This document shows positions 2,357-15,352 of a stretch of DNA of 24,000 nucleotides, one piece after another. Every line of letters starts with the position of its first letter. Positions within the stretch are counted from its first letter, which is position 1. Made by a program: the position numbers and the translations under genes. The notes under the pieces were generated by a model, which was not told the DNA's origin, made no database searches, and saw nothing but the letters and a program-made list of their open reading frames with translations. This DNA comes from Crossiella equi (lineage in GTDB: Bacteria; Actinomycetota; Actinomycetes; Mycobacteriales; Pseudonocardiaceae), in the NCBI RefSeq assembly GCF_017876755.1, contig NZ_JAGIOO010000001.1, positions 2,937,786-2,961,785 on the forward strand, given 5' to 3'.

Positions 2357-3232
2357 ATGAGCGAGCACAAGCACGGCCACGGACATGGGCACGGCCACGG
2401 CCACGACGACGCCTTCGACTGGAGCCGGATGGCCGATCTCCTGGAGAACGAGGGCGAGGTGCACAGCCCGTACGTCCGCCAGGCCTTCGACGAGCTCCGC
2501 GACCTCAGGCCCCGCCGCGTCCTCGACATCGGTGCCGGACCCGGCGTCGCCGCCTGTCGGCTCGCCGAGGTGTTCCCCGAGGCCGAGGTGGTCGCCGTCG
2601 ACGGCAGTGCCGAGCTGCTCCACCGGGCACAGGACCGCGCCAAGCGGCTCGGCGTCCGGCTCACCACCGTCCAGGCCGAGTTCCCCGACGACCTCGCCTC
2701 GCTCGGGGAGGCCGATCTCGTGTGGTCCGGGCAGGTCGTGCACCACGTCGGGGACCAGCTCGGCACGCTCCGGCAGCTCGCCGGGCTGCTGCGACCGGGT
2801 GGGGTGCTGGCCATCGTCGAGGGTGGGTTGCCCGCCCGGTTCCTGCCCCGCGACCTCGGGTTCGGGACGCCCGGCTTCCAGGTCCGGCTCGACCTGGCGC
2901 AGAACGAGCGGTTCAACCGGATGCGGGAGGAGCTGCCCGGGACGGTTCGGGTGGTGGAGCACTGGCCCGCTCTGCTCCTCGAGGCCGGGCTGGTCCAGGC
3001 GCGTACGCGCACCTTCCTGGTTGAGCACCAGGCGCCCGTGGCCGACGGGGTTCGGGAGCACGTGCGGAAGCTGCTGGAGCGGTACGAGTCGCTGGCCGGG
3101 GAACAGCTGTCCGAAGAGGACGCCACGACCCTGGCCCGGCTGCTCGACCCCGCCGATCCCGCCGGGGTGGACAACCGGGCTGACGTGTTCTTGACCACCG
3201 CCAAGTCGGTGCACTACGGGCGCAAACCCTGA
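2357..3232 (+). CDS. Class I SAM-dependent methyltransferase with N-terminal His/Gly-rich tail
   Basis: 291 aa. Motif I is VLDIGAGPGVAA. A further segment reads LRPGGVLAIVE. The N-terminus is MSEHKHGHGHGHGHGHDD. GC3 is high. Confidence 0.8.
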   Translation: MSEHKHGHGHGHGHGHDDAFDWSRMADLLENEGEVHSPYVRQAFDELRDLRPRRVLDIGAGPGVAACRLAEVFPEAEVVAVDGSAELLHRAQDRAKRLGVRLTTVQAEFPDDLASLGEADLVWSGQVVHHVGDQLGTLRQLAGLLRPGGVLAIVEGGLPARFLPRDLGFGTPGFQVRLDLAQNERFNRMREELPGTVRVVEHWPALLLEAGLVQARTRTFLVEHQAPVADGVREHVRKLLERYESLAGEQLSEEDATTLARLLDPADPAGVDNRADVFLTTAKSVHYGRKP

Positions 3233-3241
3233 CCTGGTGGC

Positions 3242-3574
3242 ATGCTGGCCGTCGTGTTGTGGAACGTCATCAGCGGTGTGCTCGCCGTGGTCGCGATCGC
3301 CCTGCTCGTCTTCGGCCAGTCCGGCACCGCCACCGCGCTGCTCTTGGTCGCCGTGGTCATGAGCATGATCGGGTCCTACCAGGCGACGAAGAAGCGGGAA
3401 CGGGAGTTCCGGGCACGGTTTCACTCGGTCGAGCGGATTCTGGAGACGCATGACCTCGATGAGGTGAAGGAGCTCCGGGCGGAGCGGGGTGAGGTGGTCG
3501 CGGTGCGGGCCGTCCGGCGGCACTTCCCCGGTATCTCGCTCACCGACGCGGTCGCACTCGTGCGCGCGCTGTAA
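3242..3574 (+). CDS. Small membrane protein (two predicted TM helices) with a C-terminal segment resembling the ribosomal L7/L12 C-terminal fold
   Basis: 110 aa with very high GC3. Hydrophobic N-terminal half: VVLWNVISGVLAVVAIALLVF ... ALLLVAVVMSMIG. The tail EVKELRAERGEVVAVRAVRRHFPGISLTDAVALVRAL resembles the IKxVRExTGxxLxEAKxLV pattern. That resemblance is an inference. Confidence 0.65.
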   Translation: MLAVVLWNVISGVLAVVAIALLVFGQSGTATALLLVAVVMSMIGSYQATKKREREFRARFHSVERILETHDLDEVKELRAERGEVVAVRAVRRHFPGISLTDAVALVRAL

Positions 3575-3604
3575 CAACGGCGCCAGCCGGTCCGACGGCC
3601 GGGT

Positions 3605-4876
3605 GTGACTCCTCGTCGCCACCCGGTCGCGGGCCGCCGCCAGCCCCACCCGGCCGCGGGCCGTCCCCGGTACCGCCGACCCGGGTTCCTCGCCGGGGCC
3701 GTCGCCGCGGTCAGCCTGCTCGTCGCCGTCATCGCGCTCTGGCCCGCCTTCGGCAGCTACCTGGCCCTGGACAGCAGCCTGTCCGTGGCCAAGGTGGCCG
3801 TGGCGGACAGGCAGGCCGAGTACTCCGCCCGGGACGTCGAGGCAGGCACCGCCACCGACGGCAAGGCCGACGTCGCCACCCTCGACATCACCCTGGCCAA
3901 CGCGGGCCAGCGCGCGGGCGTGGTCAACCGGGTCGAGCTCCGGGTGCACAACGTCTGGGCCCCGGCCTGCGGCGGGGGCGGCGGGCTGACCACCAGCGTG
4001 CGCTACGACTTCCTGCTGCCCGGCGACATCGCGGGCCTGCCCAAACCGCACCCGCTGTCCCGCACCGCACCCCAGTTCCAGGTGGAGGGCCTCAAGAACG
4101 ACGTGCTCGGCATCTCGGTCGGGCCCGAGCACCTCGGCGAGCTGGCCTGGAACTGGCTCGTCGACTTCTCCGTGACGCTGCACCAGAACGACGGCCCGCC
4201 CCTGGACGCCGGGCGCGCGGTGCTCATGGACCGCGACCGCCTCGACGACGTGCTCAACCTGGTCGGCACCTTCGACCACTACGGCGACGCGAACATGATC
4301 GCCACCAACAAGGAGTGCGCCTACCGGGCGGTGCGCACCCTGGACACCGCGCTCGCGGTGCCCACCGACCGCAAGTCCCCGGCCATCCAGGAGCTCCGCG
4401 ACGGCCTGGCCGAGCTCGGCTACGCCCCCGGCGCGCCCGCCCCCACCACCTCGGCGGCGCCGTCCGGTCCGATGGACTCCATCCCGCTCAGCACCCCGGC
4501 CGCGCCCACCCCCTCCGCCGCGCCCGGTTCCCCGCCGGACCAGCGCCGCTGGGTCGCCCAGCTCGCCTCCCTGCCCGGCGAGACCACCCCGGCCGAACGG
4601 GAACGCGCCCGCGCCGACCACCAGCACCGCCTCGGCGCCGAGGTCAAGGTGCTGGAGAGCAGCCGCTACCCGTCCCTGGTGCCCGGCTACTGGGTGCTCT
4701 ACCAGCCCGGCCCGTTCCCCGACGGCAGCGCGGCGCTGGCCTTCTGCCACGACCGGGGCTTCCGCACGGAGAGCTCCTGCGTCGGCCGCTATCTCGGTAC
4801 CAGCCCCGAGCAACGCGTGCTCACCTGCCCGTTCTCGGCCAACGGAAGCCGCCGCAACTGCTACGGACCGGTCTGA
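3605..4876 (+). CDS. Membrane-anchored hypothetical protein (Arg-rich N-terminus, one TM, Pro/Ala-rich linker, Cys-containing C-terminal domain)
   Basis: 423 aa with a GTG start at 3605. TM segment: FLAGAVAAVSLLVAVIALWPAF. Linker: APGAPAPTTSAAPSGP...TPAAPTPSAAPGSPP. The C-terminal stretch WVAQLASL...YWVLYQPGPFPDGSAALAFC has a SPOR-like pattern, which is only weakly supported. The start codon is uncertain. Confidence 0.6.
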   Translation: MTPRRHPVAGRRQPHPAAGRPRYRRPGFLAGAVAAVSLLVAVIALWPAFGSYLALDSSLSVAKVAVADRQAEYSARDVEAGTATDGKADVATLDITLANAGQRAGVVNRVELRVHNVWAPACGGGGGLTTSVRYDFLLPGDIAGLPKPHPLSRTAPQFQVEGLKNDVLGISVGPEHLGELAWNWLVDFSVTLHQNDGPPLDAGRAVLMDRDRLDDVLNLVGTFDHYGDANMIATNKECAYRAVRTLDTALAVPTDRKSPAIQELRDGLAELGYAPGAPAPTTSAAPSGPMDSIPLSTPAAPTPSAAPGSPPDQRRWVAQLASLPGETTPAERERARADHQHRLGAEVKVLESSRYPSLVPGYWVLYQPGPFPDGSAALAFCHDRGFRTESSCVGRYLGTSPEQRVLTCPFSANGSRRNCYGPV

Positions 4877-4884
4877 CGCGCGGA

Positions 4885-4907
4885 TTGTCGGGGTCCCGGG
4901 CAAGGAT
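4885..4907 (+). promoter_or_regulatory. RecA-NDp / PafBC-type DNA-damage promoter candidate for lhr, implying a leaderless transcript
   Basis: TTGTCGGGG (4885-4893), 8 nt, AAGGAT (4902-4907), 6 nt, then ATG (4914). The mycobacterial RecA-NDp motif is tTGTCRgtg-N8-TAnnnT. The -10 keeps the A at position 2 and the T at position 6 but lacks the first T. Confidence 0.45.
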
Positions 4908-4913
4908 GGGGGC

Positions 4914-9476
<4,563 letters not shown>

Positions 9477-9955: not shown

Positions 9956-10945
9956 CTAGAACAGTTCCGGGTAGGCATTGAGCGCGGGCTGTCCGCCGAG
10001 GTGGGCGTAGAGCACAGTCGAGTCTGCCGGGATCTCCTTGCGCGCCACCAGGTCCACCAGCCCGGCCATGGACTTGCCCTCGTACACCGGGTCGGTGATC
10101 ATGCCTTCGACCCGGGCGGCCAGCCGCATGGCCTCCAGGGTCCGCTCGTCCGGCAGCCCGTAGTGCCCGGCGTGGTAGCGCTCGTCCAGGACGAGGTCCC
10201 CGGCCGGGATCTCCTTGTCCAGCAAGGCCCCGGTGCGCTCGGCGATCCGCCACACCTGCTCCCGGGTGGCCTCGGGCGCGGCGGAGGCGTCGATGCCGAT
10301 CACGCGCCGCGCGGGTCCCCCGGCGAACCCGGCGATCATCCCCGCCTGCGTGGACCCGGTCACCGAGCACACCACCACGGTGTCGAAGAAGACCCCGAGC
10401 TCCCGCTCCTGCGCCGCGACCTCCTCGGCCCACGAGGCGAACCCGAGCCCGCCGAGCGGGTGGTCACTGGCCCCGGCCGGAATGGCGTAGGGCTTGCCCC
10501 CGGCCGCGCGCACCTCCGCCAGGGCGTTCTCCCAGCTGGGCCGGTACCCGATGTCGAACCCGGCGGCCGACCGCCGGATCTCGGCCCCGAGCATGCGGCT
10601 GAGCTGCAGGTTCCCCACCTGCTCGGAGGTGTTGTGCTCGACCCAGTCCTCCTGCACGAGCACGGCGCGCAGCCCGGCGACCGCGGCCGCGGCGGCCACC
10701 TGCCGGGTGTGGTTGGACTGCACCCCGCCGATCGAGACGAGCGTGTCGCACCCCTGGGCCAGGGCCTCGGCGACGAGGTACTCCAGCTTCCGGGTCTTGT
10801 TGCCCCCGTAGGCGAGCCCGGAGTTGCAGTCCTCCCGCTTGGCCCAGATCCGCGCCCCACCGAGGTGGGCGGACAGCCGCCGCAGCTCGTGCACGGGCGA
10901 GGGCCCGAACAGCAGCGGGTACCGGTCGAACTCGGCAAGCCTCAT
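9956..10945 (-). CDS. acdS: 1-aminocyclopropane-1-carboxylate (ACC) deaminase
   Basis: Trimmed from ORF 9956..11161 to the ATG at 10945 ([17 protein letters not shown]). PLP lysine motif [13 protein letters not shown], then [10 protein letters not shown], then [10 protein letters not shown]...[19 protein letters not shown]. The YE and HLGG contexts carry the Glu/Leu pair that separates true AcdS from D-cysteine desulfhydrase. Confidence 0.85.
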
Positions 10946-11595
10946 GACGCACTCCCGTCCTGGTGGGCGACGAGGGTCGCCCAGTTGGCCTCGACCAGCG
11001 CCCCGGCCCGCGCGGCGTCCCCGGCGGCACAGGCGCTGACGATCTCCTCGTGCATCCGCACGGACTCCCGGGCAGCCGAGGAGTCGAAGCGCAGCAGCAC
11101 AACCCGGTGCAGCACGGGCAGGTACCGCCCGATGGTGTCCGCCACGGCACCGTTCCCGCACGCGTTGACGGCCACGTCGTGGAAGGCCTCGTCGGCGGCC
11201 AGGGCCGCGAGCGCGTCCTCGGCGGCCAGCGCGGCGGCGAACACCTCGTTGGCCTGCCGCATGGCCCCGATCTCGGCGGCCCCGAGCCGGGGCACGGCCA
11301 GCCGGGCGGCCACGGCCTGCATGGCCTGCACCACGACCTGGGCATCCCGCACCACCACGGGATCCACGGCGGTCACCCGGGTGTAGCTGTGCGGCTTGGT
11401 CTCGACCAGCCCCTCGTCCGCCAGCCGGGCAAGCGCTTCCCGCACCGGCGTCCGCGACAACCCGAGCCGCTCCGCCAGGTCCACATCCCGGATGATCTCC
11501 CCGGGCGCCAGGTCCCCGACCACGATGGCGTGCCGGATCGCCGCCAGTGCCCGGTCCCGCAACAGCGACCGGTCGACCCGACTAATATATTGCAT
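10942..11595 (-). CDS. GntR-family transcriptional regulator (FadR-like, FCD C-terminal domain); likely AcdS regulator
   Basis: 217 aa. wHTH: [29 protein letters not shown]. All-helical C-terminal domain. Its stop overlaps the acdS start as ATGA (10942-10945), which suggests translational coupling. Confidence 0.85.
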
Positions 11596-11994: not shown

Positions 11995-13521
11995 TCAGAA
12001 CGGCCAGTCGCCCCGGCCGGTGCGTTCGATCAGCGCGAGCTGGTCGAACGAGCGGTCGGAGAGGCCGCCGAAGGTGTGGCGGTGCGGCATGGCCGGGGTG
12101 TGGGCCGGTTCGTGGCCCGCCAGGTTCCAGGTGTAGACCGGGGTGCGGGCCGGGATCGCGCGGTGCACGTCGCCGTCGCTGTGCTGTTCGTCGGTCAGGA
12201 TCACCACGCGGTCGTGACCGGCGTAGTTGTCCCGCAGCGCACCGTGCGTGTCGGTGCCCTCGCCCAGGAAGTAGCCCTCGCGGTTCCAGCGGGCCAGGCC
12301 GACCAGCAGCGACTCGTCGCGGCGCGGCGGGAAGACCCGGTAGCCGCTGGAGTAGGACACCACGGTGGCCCGTTCCGCCCTGGCCGCCAGGGCCAGGCCG
12401 AAGGTGACCGCCGCGTCCCAGCGCAGCAGGCTGCCGCGTCCGGACAGGGGCCAGCGCATCGAGCCCGAGGTGTCGACCAGCACCAGGGTGCGGCCCGGCA
12501 GGCTCGGTACCGAGGACAGCGAGTGCCCCAGCGCGGTGTCCACTGTGGACTGCCAGCGGGGACCCGCCGCCCGGTGGGCCGACAGGAAGCGCAGGGGCAG
12601 CTGCCGGGAGCGGGCCACCTGGTCGGCGTCGGCCAGTCGTGCACCGATCGCCGCCGCGACCTCCTCCGGCAGCCCGGCCTCGTCGAAGTTGCGCAGGTTG
12701 CGCAGCAACGCCATGTAGCCCATGGACGGCACGACCGCCGCCCACGCCCGCGCGTCCAACGGGCCCTGCAACCAGCCCGCCAGCGCCTCCCACGTCATGC
12801 CCGCCGAGCGCAGTGCCGCCACCGCGTGCGCCGGGTCGGCCTCGACCAGGGCCCGGCGCCGCGCGAGCGGCAGTTCCACCAGCTCCTGCCGCGCCCGCAG
12901 CACCGGCAGCTCCGCCACCGACCCCGCGCGGTCGTGCCGCGCGTCGATCAGGTGCCGGAACAGCTTGCCCTGCAAGGCGTCCCGGGGTGTCGGGTGGGTG
13001 AGCTCCAGCACGTCGGCGAACCGGAAGGCCCGCGCCGAGGAGTCCCACTTGAGCGCCGAGCGCTCGTCGTAGAGCTCGCGGACGGCGTCGGCCACCCCGC
13101 GCTTGACCGGCTTCGGGATCGCCCGGCCGTACCGGGCGGTCCAGTAGGCCAGCAGCTCACCCGGCTCGTCCGCCCGCCGCAGCACCGAGGCCACGACCTG
13201 CCGGGACAGGCCGGGCAGACCGTGGTCGAGCCGCGTGCGGGCGAACTCGGCCGCACCGGCCAGCGCGGCCGAGCGCAGGTTCGCGCCGGACCGCAGCCAG
13301 CCGAGCAGCCGTGCCGTCCACAGTGGATCGGCCAGCGTGGCCTCGCGGACCAGTGCGGCGTAACGGGAGTCCCGCTGCTCCGCCGCCTCGTACGCGGTGT
13401 GCTCGCCGACCAGGTTGTTGACCGCCAGCAGGAAGAGCTCGGTGCGGAGGTCCCGCCCGTGCGCGACACCGCCCTCGTGCGTGCGCCGCCGGAGCCTGGT
13501 CAGCACGTTGAACTTCCCCAC
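11995..13521 (-). CDS. rsr: Ro60-related protein Rsr (TROVE domain plus vWA domain with MIDAS-like motif)
   Basis: 508 aa. GTG start preceded by GGGAGGTG. N-terminal TROVE-like region: THEGGVAHGRDLRTELFLLAVNNLVGEHTAYEAAEQRD ... MGYMALLRNLRNFDEAG. C-terminal vWA: TLVLVDTSGSM (DxSxS) ... VVILTDEQ. Further supported by the adjacent Y-RNA-like element. Confidence 0.85.
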   Translation of the reverse strand: MGKFNVLTRLRRRTHEGGVAHGRDLRTELFLLAVNNLVGEHTAYEAAEQRDSRYAALVREATLADPLWTARLLGWLRSGANLRSAALAGAAEFARTRLDHGLPGLSRQVVASVLRRADEPGELLAYWTARYGRAIPKPVKRGVADAVRELYDERSALKWDSSARAFRFADVLELTHPTPRDALQGKLFRHLIDARHDRAGSVAELPVLRARQELVELPLARRRALVEADPAHAVAALRSAGMTWEALAGWLQGPLDARAWAAVVPSMGYMALLRNLRNFDEAGLPEEVAAAIGARLADADQVARSRQLPLRFLSAHRAAGPRWQSTVDTALGHSLSSVPSLPGRTLVLVDTSGSMRWPLSGRGSLLRWDAAVTFGLALAARAERATVVSYSSGYRVFPPRRDESLLVGLARWNREGYFLGEGTDTHGALRDNYAGHDRVVILTDEQHSDGDVHRAIPARTPVYTWNLAGHEPAHTPAMPHRHTFGGLSDRSFDQLALIERTGRGDWPF

Positions 13522-13565
13522 CTCTGCTCACCTCCCGCGAATGCGAACATGACTGTGTACCAACG

Positions 13566-13717
13566 AAAAAAGTTTTGGGTGTGCCCGAGATCCAAGTCGG
13601 CGACGGTACAAACGTGCTCTGCCAAGCTGAGCTACCAGGCCCGGAGACCTGAGAGGGATTCGAACCCCCGACCTCGCCGTTCTGAGCGGAAGTAACCGTT
13701 GCCTGCGCACCGGGCAC
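13566..13717 (-). ncRNA. yrlA: YrlA-type bacterial Y RNA candidate with a circularly permuted tRNA-like domain (boundaries approximate)
   Basis: Minus strand: AGGUC, then T arm GGGGG-UUCGAAU-CCCUC (13669-13653). Next UCAGGUC (13652-13646), UCCG tetraloop (13645-13642), GGCCUGG (13641-13635), UA. Then D arm GCUC-AGCUUGGCA-GAGC (13632-13616). The flanks can pair: GUGCCCG (13717-13711) with CGGGCAC (13587-13581), and ACGGU(U)AC (13699-13692) with GUACCGU (13609-13603). A U6 tract sits at 13571-13566, 44 nt upstream of rsr. Confidence 0.75.
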
Positions 13718-13724
13718 AAGAGGA

Positions 13725-13753
13725 ACACTAGCCGGGGAACCGCGGTCCCCCAA
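13725..13753 (-). promoter_or_regulatory. Candidate promoter for the Y RNA (-35 TTGGGG, 17-bp spacer, -10 TAGTGT)
   Basis: -35 at 13753-13748 and -10 at 13730-13725. The predicted start, about 7 nt downstream, falls at G13717, the first base of the terminal helix. Hexamer matches are weak and the spacer contains the upstream gene's terminator-like hairpin. Confidence 0.3.
13734..13750 (-). terminator. Possible terminator hairpin after the TipA-like gene (GGGGAC CGCG GUUCCCC)
   Basis: Starts 9 nt after the TAA stop at 13759-13761. Followed by the moderately U-rich GGCUAGUGUUCCUCUU. Confidence 0.3.
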
Positions 13754-13758
13754 CCGAA

Positions 13759-14511
13759 TTATCCGAGCTCGCGCTCGGCGTAGACGCGCATCGCGTCCCG
13801 GATGAACTCGGCGGTACCGGCACCGAACTGCTCGTAGTTCCTGGTGAACCGCTCGTCCGCGACGTACAGCTCACCGATCCCGGCGAACTGCGCCGCGGTC
13901 GGCCGACGCCCCTGCCAGCCCGCCACGACCCACTCGTAGTGCCGCGCCACCACGGCCTGCACCTCGGCGTCCCCGGCGTCCTTGCCCGAGGCGGCCGCGG
14001 CGGCCAGCGCCGTGGCGATCTCCTCCTGCTCCCGGAAGTGCGCGCGCCGCCCGTCCTCGCCGAGCTCACGCCACCACCGGTCACCACGCGCGTAGGTCTC
14101 CTTCCCCCAGCGCCGCGTGACCTCTTCCTCGTACCGCGTGTGGTCAAAACCGTCGAACACCTCGGCGGCCATCAGTGGTTCACCTCTCTCCGTCTTCCGC
14201 AACGTCGTCCGCACCGACTCGATCTGCCGCCCGATGCGCTGCCGCTCCTGTTCGAGCAGCGCCAGGTGGGTGCGCAGCGCGGCGACGGTGTCCCGCTGCC
14301 CGCCGAGCACCTCGGCGATCGCCGGGAGGCCCAGGCCCAGCTCGCGCAGCAGCAGGATGCGCTGCAGGCGCACGAGCGAGTCCTCGTCGTAGAAGCGGTA
14401 GCCGTTGCGGCCGACGCGGCTCGGCGGCAGCAGCCCCAGCTCGCCGTAGTGGCGGAGCGTGCGGCTGGTGGTGCCCGCCGAGCGCGCGAGGTCCTGGATC
14501 GACCACTCCAC
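13759..14511 (-). CDS. MerR-family transcriptional regulator, TipAL-like (N-terminal MerR HTH plus C-terminal TipAS antibiotic-recognition domain)
   Basis: Trimmed from ORF 13759..14949 to the GTG at 14511 (GGGAGG lies 8 nt upstream; an alternative GTG is at 14520). HTH region: WSIQDLARSAGTTSRTLRHYGELGLLPPSRVGRNGYRFYDEDSLVRLQRILLLRELGLGLPAI. TipAS-like tail: ...RWGKETYA...ELYVADERFTRNYEQFGAGTAEFIRDAM. About 250 aa, similar in size to TipAL. Confidence 0.85.
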   Translation of the reverse strand: MEWSIQDLARSAGTTSRTLRHYGELGLLPPSRVGRNGYRFYDEDSLVRLQRILLLRELGLGLPAIAEVLGGQRDTVAALRTHLALLEQERQRIGRQIESVRTTLRKTERGEPLMAAEVFDGFDHTRYEEEVTRRWGKETYARGDRWWRELGEDGRRAHFREQEEIATALAAAAASGKDAGDAEVQAVVARHYEWVVAGWQGRRPTAAQFAGIGELYVADERFTRNYEQFGAGTAEFIRDAMRVYAERELG

Positions 14512-14545
14512 CGCGCCCACCTCCCTCGTCGTTCGGACGAGAACC

Positions 14546-14576
14546 ACGGTAGAAGTTGACGCAGCGTCAAGGTCAA
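14546..14576 (-). promoter_or_regulatory. MerR-type promoter: -35 TTGACC, 19-bp spacer containing the 7-1-7 palindrome TTGACGC-T-GCGTCAA, -10 TACCGT
   Basis: On the minus strand: -35 at 14576-14571, palindrome at 14570-14556, -10 at 14551-14546. The overlong 19-bp spacer with the dyad inside it is the hallmark of MerR/TipA autoregulated promoters. Confidence 0.65.
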
Positions 14577-14590
14577 GCCGCGAAACCGGG

Positions 14591-15352
14591 TTAGCCCGAT
14601 GCGGTGGCCAGGCGTTGCAGCGCCCACAGCTGGGCGGTGGCGTCCCGGCTGCCCGCGAGCGTGACCGCGCGGTCGGGCATGCGGCCCCACAGCCACAGGT
14701 AGACCGCCATCGGGTCGCCGGTGACCAGCCCGTCCGCCCCCGCGGCCTCGGTGGCCGAGACCCGCTCGGCGACGGTGCCCTCCGGGCCGGTGTGCACCAG
14801 CCAGGCGTGCCCGCCGCAGCGCACGCCGACGGTGGCGCGCCGCGGGCCGGTGATGCCCAGGCGGCCGAGGCGGTAGCCCAGCCACAGCAGCAGCGCCTCG
14901 TCCACGCCGTCCACGGCGAACTCGGGCGCCACCTCCAGCAGCGGCGCACCGGCCGCGGCCTGCGCGTCCACCCGGTGCAGCGTGGACTCGTGCGCCAGCC
15001 GCCGCCGCCAGAACCCGTAGCTCGTGTCAGCGGGCCACCAGGTCGGGCAGGGCGCGTACGCGTCGTGCGCGGCCAGCTCGCCGACCAGCACGGCCAGCCC
15101 GGTGCGCACCTGCTCCACCGGCGTGCCGGGCGGTTCGCCGACGACCAGCGGCGGCGCGCCGGTGCGGATCCAGCTCACCGCGAGCCGGTAGCCGAGCGCG
15201 GCCGCGCGGACCGCCTCGCCGAGCGTGCGCCGCGGCCAGGCGGGCACGGCGCTGCCGAGGTCGGCCCCGGCAGCGCACGCGGCGAGCAGTTCCCCTTCGT
15301 TCTGGAGCGTGTCGAGCAGCTGGGACGGATCGACGAGTGCCTGCGCGCTCAC
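14591..15352 (-). CDS. Maleylpyruvate isomerase-family (DinB-fold) mycothiol-dependent-enzyme-like protein
   Basis: Trimmed from ORF 14591..15505 to the GTG at 15352, which overlaps the upstream stop as GTGA. 253 aa. Contains FWRRRLAHESTLHRVDAQAA (the family E...H metal motif) and a C-terminal GDPMAVYLWLWGR segment typical of this actinobacterial family. Confidence 0.7.
   Translation of the reverse strand: MSAQALVDPSQLLDTLQNEGELLAACAAGADLGSAVPAWPRRTLGEAVRAAALGYRLAVSWIRTGAPPLVVGEPPGTPVEQVRTGLAVLVGELAAHDAYAPCPTWWPADTSYGFWRRRLAHESTLHRVDAQAAAGAPLLEVAPEFAVDGVDEALLLWLGYRLGRLGITGPRRATVGVRCGGHAWLVHTGPEGTVAERVSATEAAGADGLVTGDPMAVYLWLWGRMPDRAVTLAGSRDATAQLWALQRLATASG

Follow-up and report, generated by a model that had tools for sequence, protein, structure and literature searches.

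YrlA-type Y RNAs have been described beside rsr, the gene for the bacterial Ro60 homologue, in more than 250 bacteria and phages, including Gordonia, Streptosporangium and the experimentally validated case of Mycobacterium smegmatis, and are encoded on the Ro60 strand within 4 kilobases (kb) (PMC4201824). The M. smegmatis YrlA, of ~147 nucleotides (nt), binds Rsr, is cut by RNase P and receives a CCA tail, a 7-base pair (bp) acceptor-like stem being held responsible for the cleavage; the motifs conserved in YrlA RNAs include YUAY and, near the 5' end, GNCGAAN0-1G, the putative Ro60 contact (PMC4201824). The crystal structure of YrlA from S. Typhimurium (PDB 6CU1) has a tRNA-like fold (bioRxiv 10.1101/312249). 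Further marks of the class are stability and Rsr binding in vivo, and tRNA modifications (Psi55, D). Here we report that a minus-strand element upstream of rsr in Crossiella equi, lying in a 24,000-nt stretch of DNA that was analysed as a whole (the window), is very probably, to judge from its sequence, a YrlA-class bacterial Y RNA gene.

The order of parts in the element is that of YrlA RNAs, i.e. 5' stem strand with a Ro60 motif, YUAY, 'V' hairpin, T arm, closed acceptor-like stem, UA, D arm and 3' stem strand, and its T-loop and D-arm sequences are nearly identical to theirs. As in M. smegmatis it is upstream of, and co-oriented with, rsr, has an acceptor-like stem of 7 bp and is of comparable length (~137 vs ~147 nt). 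It differs from the known YrlA RNAs in its 5' motif, which reads UGCGCAGG and not GNCGAAN0-1G; from the YrlA of Salmonella in having no rtcBA/rtcR context, its neighbours being gntR and a 1-aminocyclopropane-1-carboxylate (ACC) deaminase gene; and from M. smegmatis and most relatives in being a single copy with no YrlB-like partner in the window.

With Deinococcus radiodurans Yrn1 and the metazoan Y RNAs the element shares a terminal stem formed by its two ends and a conserved sequence on the 5' strand, which is Ro60-bound in those RNAs and a predicted contact motif here; the gene for Yrn1 likewise adjoins rsr. By contrast, a tRNA-like module is lacking from metazoan Y RNAs, and in Yrn1 there is just a T arm and partial D features, in another orientation. 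As in the circularly permuted tRNA genes of Cyanidioschyzon merolae and others, in which a loop at first closes the acceptor stem, the 3' half comes first; unlike in those genes, the ends extend into a conserved Ro60-binding-type stem, and there is no sign of maturation to a decoding tRNA. The Yrl1 and Yrl2 RNAs of Thermus phage phiLo (PMC12135203) and the mycobacteriophage YrlAs (PMC4201824) are similarly encoded directly upstream of a Ro60 homologue, although the definition of the phiLo Yrls rests on a CGAA motif and a stem and involves no tRNA-like module (PMC12135203). The phage pairs differ from the C. equi locus in that the window is chromosomal, being part of a 9.4-Mb contig, with no phage genes seen among the neighbours checked.

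Identity and extent of the RNA gene

The open reading frame (ORF) at 11995..13521 (minus strand, GTG start at 13521) encodes a Ro60 homologue of 508 amino acids (WP_086783433.1) with TROVE (Pfam, 6.6e-13) and VWA_2 domains. The only relatives of this protein in the PDB, and thus its closest match there, are 9KOP/9L5Y, the Ro60 of phage phiLo (1e-23), and full-length comparison with actinophage proteins that carry the annotation Ro-like RNA-binding protein gives 38-44% identity. On these grounds the ORF is a genuine rsr, and its product is probably the protein partner of the RNA, the 3' end of which is predicted ~60 nt from the GTG and on the same strand, i.e. within the 4 kb and in the orientation seen for other YrlA RNAs.

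The whole RNA is placed at 13581..13717 (minus strand, ~137 nt), its putative ends being set by a terminal helix and by the extent of homology with relatives, which starts at ~13718 and stops at ~13578 when the window RNA is used as an nhmmer query. A preliminary description of this DNA had proposed a YrlA-type Y RNA over 13566-13753. The elements that it listed are all on the minus strand, almost base for base, and the assignment itself is supported by architecture, model match, the TROVE/VWA neighbour and conservation; the interval, however, has to be narrowed, since 13722-13753 is promoter-like, contains a hairpin and lies outside the RNA. Of the sequence-testable features of YrlA RNAs all but two, an Rfam score at the curated threshold and the exact 5' motif, are found, so that the element, having the architecture by which YrlA is defined, appears to be a new example of a known RNA family.

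The principal evidence comes from relatives. A scan with the Rsr protein, taking one genome per species, gave 68 rsr loci (L001-L068) at 40-64% protein identity from Nocardia, Streptomyces, Kitasatospora, Planotetraspora, Streptosporangium, Lentzea and others. With the window RNA as its sole query, nhmmer found homologues upstream of rsr in nearly all 68, with E-values down to 8e-25. In an alignment of the window RNA with 57 homologues (58 sequences, mean column identity 57%), RNAalifold independently predicted four helices of the end-formed stem (P1-P4) together with the T, acceptor-like and D stems, 23 of its 33 pairs showing compensatory changes. When this structure was completed by hand to 38 pairs, 95.3% of cells were paired, compared with 37-45% in controls in which the 3' partners were slid by 1-3 columns; cells with double changes numbered 348 vs 42-74 in the same controls, and none of 500 shuffles attained the observed score. 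The alignment of orthologous regions proposed in the preliminary description thus bears it out, in that orthologous rsr loci show conservation and covariation of both the capped stem and the flanking helices.

A covariance model built from the 58 sequences (R1) scores the window element at 136.8 bits over 13721..13574. The next-best match in the window has just 15 bits; the RNA is a single copy there, and a second copy or a YrlB-like RNA in the window was rejected for this reason. Across the window and 61 of the 68 loci R1 gave 151 matches, all but one on the rsr strand and nearly all no more than ~800 nt upstream of rsr, the exceptions being a few at 1.5-2.1 kb in L003, L004 and L059.

The Ro60-binding-type stem

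The ends of the RNA are predicted to pair in a long, interrupted stem. Its terminal helix, P1, is formed by GUGCCCGG (13710..13717) with 13589 and 13587-13581 of the 3' strand CUCGGGCAC (13581..13589), U13588 being bulged; double changes occur in 5 of its 8 pairs, and it is one pair (G13710:C13589) longer than the terminal helix 13717-13711 / 13587-13581 originally proposed. P2 consists of C13707:G13592. P3 (GGC, 13703-13701 / 13601-13599) and P4 (ACGG, 13699-13696 / 13606-13603), with 5' strands in 13696..13703 and 3' strands (CCGU, C, GCC) in 13599..13606, have double changes in 6 of 7 pairs and 97.8% of cells paired. The stem with a single bulged U that had been drawn at 13699-13692 / 13609-13603 therefore survives in part, its four pairs 13699-13696 / 13606-13603 being those of P4; the three further pairs, U13695:A13607, A13693:U13608 and C13692:G13609, were rejected, being 56% paired in relatives vs 54% in shuffles.

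Between the two flanking helices, in a region that also includes the 5' partner of P2, lies the sequence GGUGCGCAGG (13702..13711), which the first reading had not identified. The block GGUGCG(C/A)AGG is invariant or nearly so among the 58 homologues, and the relatives' version of the Ro60-type motif, UGCG(C/A)AGG, is equally constant in position and context. The 5' sequence of vertebrate Y RNAs, e.g. hY1, GGUCCGA(AGG), is comparable to GGUGCGCAGG. On this basis GGUGCGCAGG is taken as the likely counterpart of the GNCGAAN0-1G / GGUCCGA Ro60-contact region of known Y RNAs. The stem is followed on the 5' side by a linker, UUACUU (13690..13695), that is nearly invariant in the alignment and holds YUAY, as UUAC (13695-13692, likewise nearly invariant in relatives), before the V region.

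The permuted tRNA-like module

The second module begins with the hairpin CCG-CUCAGAA-CGG (13677..13689), the 'V' arm of the literature, the stem of which covaries. It is followed by the dinucleotide CG (13675..13676), which pairs with 13614-13613 in a two-bp helix (C13676:G13613 and G13675:C13614); covariation is seen at both, 17 and 16 sequences having double changes, and several complementary dinucleotide combinations occur among relatives. Direct reading and the alignment then give a class-I variable loop, AGGUC (13670..13674), with equivalents of G46 and C48, and a T arm, GGGGG-UUCGAAU-CCCUC (13653..13669), in which 100% of cells are paired and 3 of 5 pairs have double changes.

The acceptor-like stem (13635..13652) is formed by UCAGGUC (13652-13646) and GGCCUGG (13641-13635), closed by the tetraloop UCCG (13645-13642). 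It includes two G-U pairs, has double changes in 6 of its 7 pairs, at 20-37 per pair, and is of 7 or 8 bp in 69 of 93 homologues. That the loop U-CC-G might encode a discriminator and CC, and so favour RNase P or CCA enzymes, was considered and rejected, relatives' loops being mostly UNCG-like or unrelated (UUCG, ACAG, CUCG and others). The remaining tRNA equivalents (13613..13634), identified by direct reading, the Rfam alignment and covariation, are U8 and A9 (UA, 13634-13633), the D arm GCUC-AGCUUGGCA-GAGC (13632-13616), A26 (A13615) and C27 G28. The T stem-loop (GGUUCGAnUCC) is thus 5' of the D stem-loop (GUAGCUCA..GG..AGAGC), as in YrlA, both with high posterior in the Rfam alignment. The preliminary description had the molecule opening where the anticodon stem would be; the T arm does precede the D arm and the acceptor is closed, but a 2-bp remnant and an anticodon-arm-like hairpin are kept.

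By inspection, the sequence is compatible with all of the tertiary interactions of tRNA. A Levitt pair 15:48 could form from G13627:C13670; U8-A14-A21 (U13634, A13628, A13620), A9-U12-A23 and C13-G22-G46 are compatible; and G18/G19 (G13623 G13622) could contact U55/C56 of a T loop (U13664 U13663 C13662 A13660) that also allows U54-A58.

In the literature the 'V' hairpin is treated as a long, class-II-like variable arm (PMC4201824). In this actinomycete subfamily it may instead mimic an anticodon arm, the module then being a complete tRNA permuted between positions 28 and 29, from the anticodon stem of which the Ro60-binding stem departs; this refinement, which may be new to the literature, is put forward tentatively, as somewhat short of an even chance. 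The hairpin (13689-13677) would correspond to tRNA positions 29-41, with the loop C32 U33 CAG A37 A38 following the pattern Y32-U33-NNN-R37-A38; its 3 bp are directly continuous with the covarying 2-bp helix (tRNA 42-43 : 27-28), the two together potentially giving a 5-bp stem, and a normal 5-nt class-I variable loop comes next. Such a 5-bp stem can be drawn in 44 of 82 unique RNAs. Among 63 RNAs modelled with a hairpin having a 7-nt loop, Y32 is present in 54, U33 in 48, R37 in 50 and A38 in 43, with positions 34-36 varying freely, and the 'anticodon' triplet is free to vary between orthologues and tandem paralogues alike. Positions 40-74 of the window RNA are collinear with, and 91% identical to, a phage tRNA-Arg from anticodon loop through T arm. 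From an artificially de-permuted window sequence ARAGORN predicts a 77-nt tRNA(cag) using the hairpin as its anticodon arm. Against this proposal, 19 of the 82 RNAs have no such hairpin, and ARAGORN accepts 24-34 of 58 sequences (41-59%) with a shuffled arm, compared with 88% of the real de-permuted sequences, so ARAGORN calls on de-permuted sequences are weak evidence. Overall, support for an anticodon-arm mimic is moderate.

Model searches and the case against a YrlA assignment

A permissive Rfam scan of 13400-13900 (501 nt) matched YrlA (RF02553) to 13699..13594 on the minus strand with E=1.2e-6, the full model (1-114) being aligned, so that the covariance-model match anticipated in the preliminary description was obtained, albeit below the curated threshold. 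ARAGORN found no tRNA gene in the window, as had been predicted of tRNA scanners, a cloverleaf in native order being absent; the Rfam tRNA model had no match in the whole window at gathering thresholds or in 13400-13900 in the permissive scan, and the Rfam Y_RNA model (RF00019, metazoan/Deinococcus type) had none in 13400-13900 even at E up to 10.

Several results speak against identification as a YrlA RNA. The RF02553 score, 37.2 bits, is far under the gathering score of 69, and the scan of the whole window against Rfam at gathering thresholds was empty. GNCGAAN0-1G is not literally present, UGCGCAGG (13709-13702) fitting 4 of its 6 specified positions, and G13706/G13593 is a G-G mismatch in the Ro-binding region, where relatives have G-C or G-U. 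The minimum free energy is no better than that of shuffles (z = -0.5 for the reported interval and -1.3 for 13722-13575), and a scan for consensus sigma-70 promoters and intrinsic terminators gave no sites.

The low RF02553 score arises because the Rfam alignment sets the 5' motif of the model on ACGGUUAC (13699-13692) instead of 13711-13702, and because the middle 7-bp helix of the model, which is absent here, could not form in that alignment. No YrlA match in 19 related actinomycete loci, or in the locus of Streptomyces phage BRock, reached the RF02553 threshold; therefore, the deficit is that of the model and is not locus-specific, and the curated RF02553 model under-covers the whole actinomycete subfamily. 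With folding energy uninformative, the case for a YrlA RNA rests on the comparison with relatives and not on thermodynamics.

Promoter, leader and transcript end

Since the strict promoter scan was empty, the promoter proposed here rests on positional conservation of two motifs. A -10-like hexamer, TAGTGT (13725..13730, minus strand), is separated by 17 nt from a -35-like TTGGGG (13748-13753), just upstream of which is the AT-rich sequence ATAATTCGG (13762-13754), the two together occupying 13748..13762. In 26 of 62 sequences (the 61 loci and the window) a TANNNT hexamer ends 2-3 nt before the model start of the first Y RNA, and in 11 more of the 62 it occurs 15 nt before it, whereas background 12-nt windows >18 nt upstream contain 0-3. 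An AT-rich motif of AAT(T)CG type recurs across genera at a like distance, ~24-30 nt upstream of the -10 hexamer. Transcription would then start at ~13718-13716. An 8-bp hairpin, UGGGGGAC-CGCG-GUUCCCCG (13733..13752, minus strand), identified by folding, is located directly past the stop codon of the upstream MerR/TipAS gene, a TAA (13761-13759) that overlaps the AT-rich element, and within the putative promoter spacer. It was rejected as part of the RNA, homology starting at ~13718 and the hairpin falling between the -35-like and -10-like hexamers.

The U6 tract placed by the preliminary description 44 nt before the rsr start was found at 13571-13566 (13566..13571, minus strand), with the GTG at 13521. 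It is 9 nt past P1, is not conserved in relatives and does not form part of a canonical intrinsic terminator. Because no canonical terminator separates the RNA from rsr, the likeliest route to the RNA would be a joint transcript with rsr that is then processed. The sequence GGGAGG (13536-13531) is 9 nt upstream of the rsr GTG and has no upstream CCUCC partner in the window. In many relatives a CCUCC...GGGGG hairpin is present between the last Y RNA and rsr, e.g. L018 2381-2440, L036 2387-2435, L006 2397-2440 and L002 2375-2415 (coordinates with an L number refer to the extracted rsr loci), which would mask the ribosome-binding site of rsr; its folding has z-scores of -1.8 and -2.7 at two loci and of about -0.3 at two others.

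Alternative explanations

These features bear on the possibility that the element acts in cis as a 5' leader in the rsr mRNA, for example as an autoregulatory Rsr-binding site or a stabilising structure, and is never released as a small RNA. It is 60 nt from the rsr start and co-stranded with no canonical terminator between; relatives have their Y RNA units packed at distances of 0-10 nt, hence sharing a transcript with rsr, and many have the hairpin that could mask the ribosome-binding site. The homologous, co-transcribed RNAs of M. smegmatis are, however, processed to discrete Rsr-bound species (PMC4201824), and arrays of two to five diverged units are hard to account for as leaders. An exclusively cis-acting role is therefore unlikely, although roles as leader and as released RNA are not mutually exclusive.

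A different possibility is that two tRNA genes have decayed or been rearranged here, the T arm of one being followed by the D arm of the next, and that the element is functionless at present. The module is indeed tRNA-derived in sequence, as the 35 nt that are 91% identical to a phage tRNA-Arg indicate, adjacent real tRNA-Thr genes in phage BRock score 22.7 bits with R1, and a dimeric-tRNA origin of YrlA has already been proposed in the literature. On the other hand, conservation and covariation extend across genera in the helices without a tRNA counterpart (P1-P4) and in the GGUGCGCAGG block, which speaks against the decayed fusion that the preliminary description had named as an alternative; 61 of 68 loci have the element linked to rsr; the acceptor-like hairpin has stayed paired despite 20-37 double changes per pair; no tRNA is detected in the window by ARAGORN or by the Rfam tRNA model; and the 57% mean column identity speaks against recent copies of one mobile sequence. 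Purifying selection on structure, as read from the alignment, excludes a pseudogene, and the decayed-pair reading is highly improbable; a dimeric origin concerns ancestry and not present function.

Chance resemblance in a GC-rich intergenic region, or protein coding by the mechanical ORFs that overlap it (13157..13753 and 13528..13728), would be in keeping with a folding energy no better than that of shuffles, but is refuted, and least probable of all, given E-values of 1e-6 to 1e-32 across three independent searches, substitutions that are compensatory base-pair exchanges and not codon-like, and a 198-residue ORF that overlaps rsr out of frame; the preliminary description, too, had called both ORFs spurious.

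Y RNA arrays in relatives and in phage

Tandem Y RNA arrays are commoner than single copies in related actinomycetes: among 61 loci, 10 have one copy, 29 have two, 14 have three, 7 have four and 1 has five. The units are often 0-10 nt apart (e.g. L018 1990-2140, 2145-2227 and 2232-2380; L001 1685-2469), and the arrays are ~150-800 nt upstream of rsr. Streptomyces arrays usually have two YrlA-type units around a ~83-nt, YrlB-like unit in which the Ro60-binding stem is kept and the tRNA module is gone. In two Nocardia loci (L003 714-905, L004 693-884) there is an extra YrlA-type unit ~1.6 kb upstream of rsr, scoring 98-102 bits, with a ~45-nt insertion after the D arm that brings it to 192 nt. 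A marginal match to Rfam Scr4115, a Streptomyces sRNA, in Kitasatospora (L012 282-393, minus strand; 58.7 bits against a gathering score of 58), ~2 kb upstream of rsr, probably has no connection with the Y RNAs.

Among the paralogous units, some reproduce the identity of a particular tRNA. Those at L062 2081-2227, L067 2239-2397, L036 1879-2021, L047 1879-2024 and L064 2231-2377 have a D arm of the form UC-GUCCAGUGGCCCAGGAC and a 4-nt variable loop, with a CUCUCAA or CUUUCAA hairpin loop in 3 of the 5, and the second units of L045, L057, L029 and L050 have a D arm of the form UG-GCGGAA.GG.AGACGC and a longer V region; the former D arm is putatively of tRNA-Glu type and the latter putatively of tRNA-Leu type.

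The 5' halves of some Y RNAs, comprising the Ro60-motif strand, the hairpin, the T arm and the first acceptor strand, pass the Rfam tRNA gathering score (30-32 vs 29 bits), L006 2264-2326 and L058 2251-2317 being among them, and 17 homologues are called tRNA by ARAGORN in native order. These tRNA-like 5' halves fit a dimeric-tRNA origin and are likely to give rise to false annotations of tRNAs or pseudo-tRNAs in the region upstream of rsr.

In Streptomyces phage BRock (NC_048650, L069), two unannotated YrlA-type RNAs (2955-3106 and 3307-3451; R1 scores of 53 and 57 bits) are present upstream of gp191 (coding sequence 3535-5106), and weaker matches at 3108-3213 and 3219-3306 may be further Y RNA units. 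The gp191 product, annotated 'RNA-binding protein', is 42.5% identical to the window Rsr. The two RNAs are sited in the middle of a large phage tRNA array.

Gene neighbourhood

Downstream of rsr in the window are genes for a GntR/FCD regulator (10942-11595, minus strand) and then ACC deaminase (~9956-10939; TIGR01274, 516 bits). In ~15-17 Streptomyces loci (L014-L050, at about 4050-5820), gntR and acdS follow rsr with order and strand kept, the full-length matches being 50-55% identical for gntR (65% in one truncated 75-residue match) and 70-76% for acdS; the rsr-gntR-acdS linkage is conserved across genera. No rtcB or rtcA is present at the C. equi rsr locus.

The upstream ORF (13759-14949, minus strand) encodes a TipAL-like regulator with MerR-HTH and TipAS domains, the true start of which is probably near 14505 because in the mechanical ORF the MerR domain starts only at residue 150. 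Its role as a dedicated regulator is unsupported, tblastn finding no homologue in any of the 68 related rsr loci. A large helicase of Lhr type (1520 residues, with DEAD, Helicase_C and DEAD_assoc domains and four Lhr winged-helix domains) is encoded further away, ~2.5 kb from rsr, at 4914-9476 on the plus strand; its gene and that for ACC deaminase converge.

Proposed mechanism and implications

What the sequences show is a conserved, covarying two-module RNA tied to rsr. It would be transcribed from the -35 TTGGGG and -10 TAGTGT hexamers across their 17-nt spacer, probably running on into rsr, and the Y RNA would be released by processing, as are YrlA and YrlB of M. smegmatis. The first module of the fold, which covariation supports, is the long interrupted stem of the 5' and 3' ends (P1-P4), to the P1-P3 region of which Rsr is predicted to bind through the 5'-strand motif GGUGCGCAGG. 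The second would be a permuted L-shape of anticodon-arm-like hairpin, 2-bp remnant, variable loop, T arm, closed 7-bp acceptor, U8 A9 and D arm. By analogy with Yrn1 and YrlA, the RNA may tether or gate Rsr in RNA decay or repair, and, as suggested by the family, the tRNA-like module may be shown to tRNA-recognising enzymes, possibly including an effector such as PNPase. Because its acceptor-like stem, like that of M. smegmatis YrlA, has exactly 7 bp, the RNA is predicted, speculatively, to be cut by RNase P between G13642 and G13641, which would leave two base-paired halves.

The locus adds a Ro60-Y RNA pair in Crossiella equi, of the Pseudonocardiaceae, in what is the simple, one-RNA form of the arrays of two to five units found in Streptomyces, Nocardia and relatives. 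Annotation pipelines will leave such genes blank or label their 5' halves as weak tRNAs, and the covarying alignment of 58 sequences could reseed the RF02553 family. The 7-bp stem and the anticodon-arm-like hairpin yield predictions on which tRNA enzymes may act on Y RNAs, i.e. RNase P cleavage, CCA addition and anticodon-loop modification. If the anticodon-arm proposal is true, Ro60 ribonucleoproteins might offer anticodon arms as decoys or sensors to tRNA-directed enzymes, for example to anticodon nucleases, to modification enzymes or to the ribosome.

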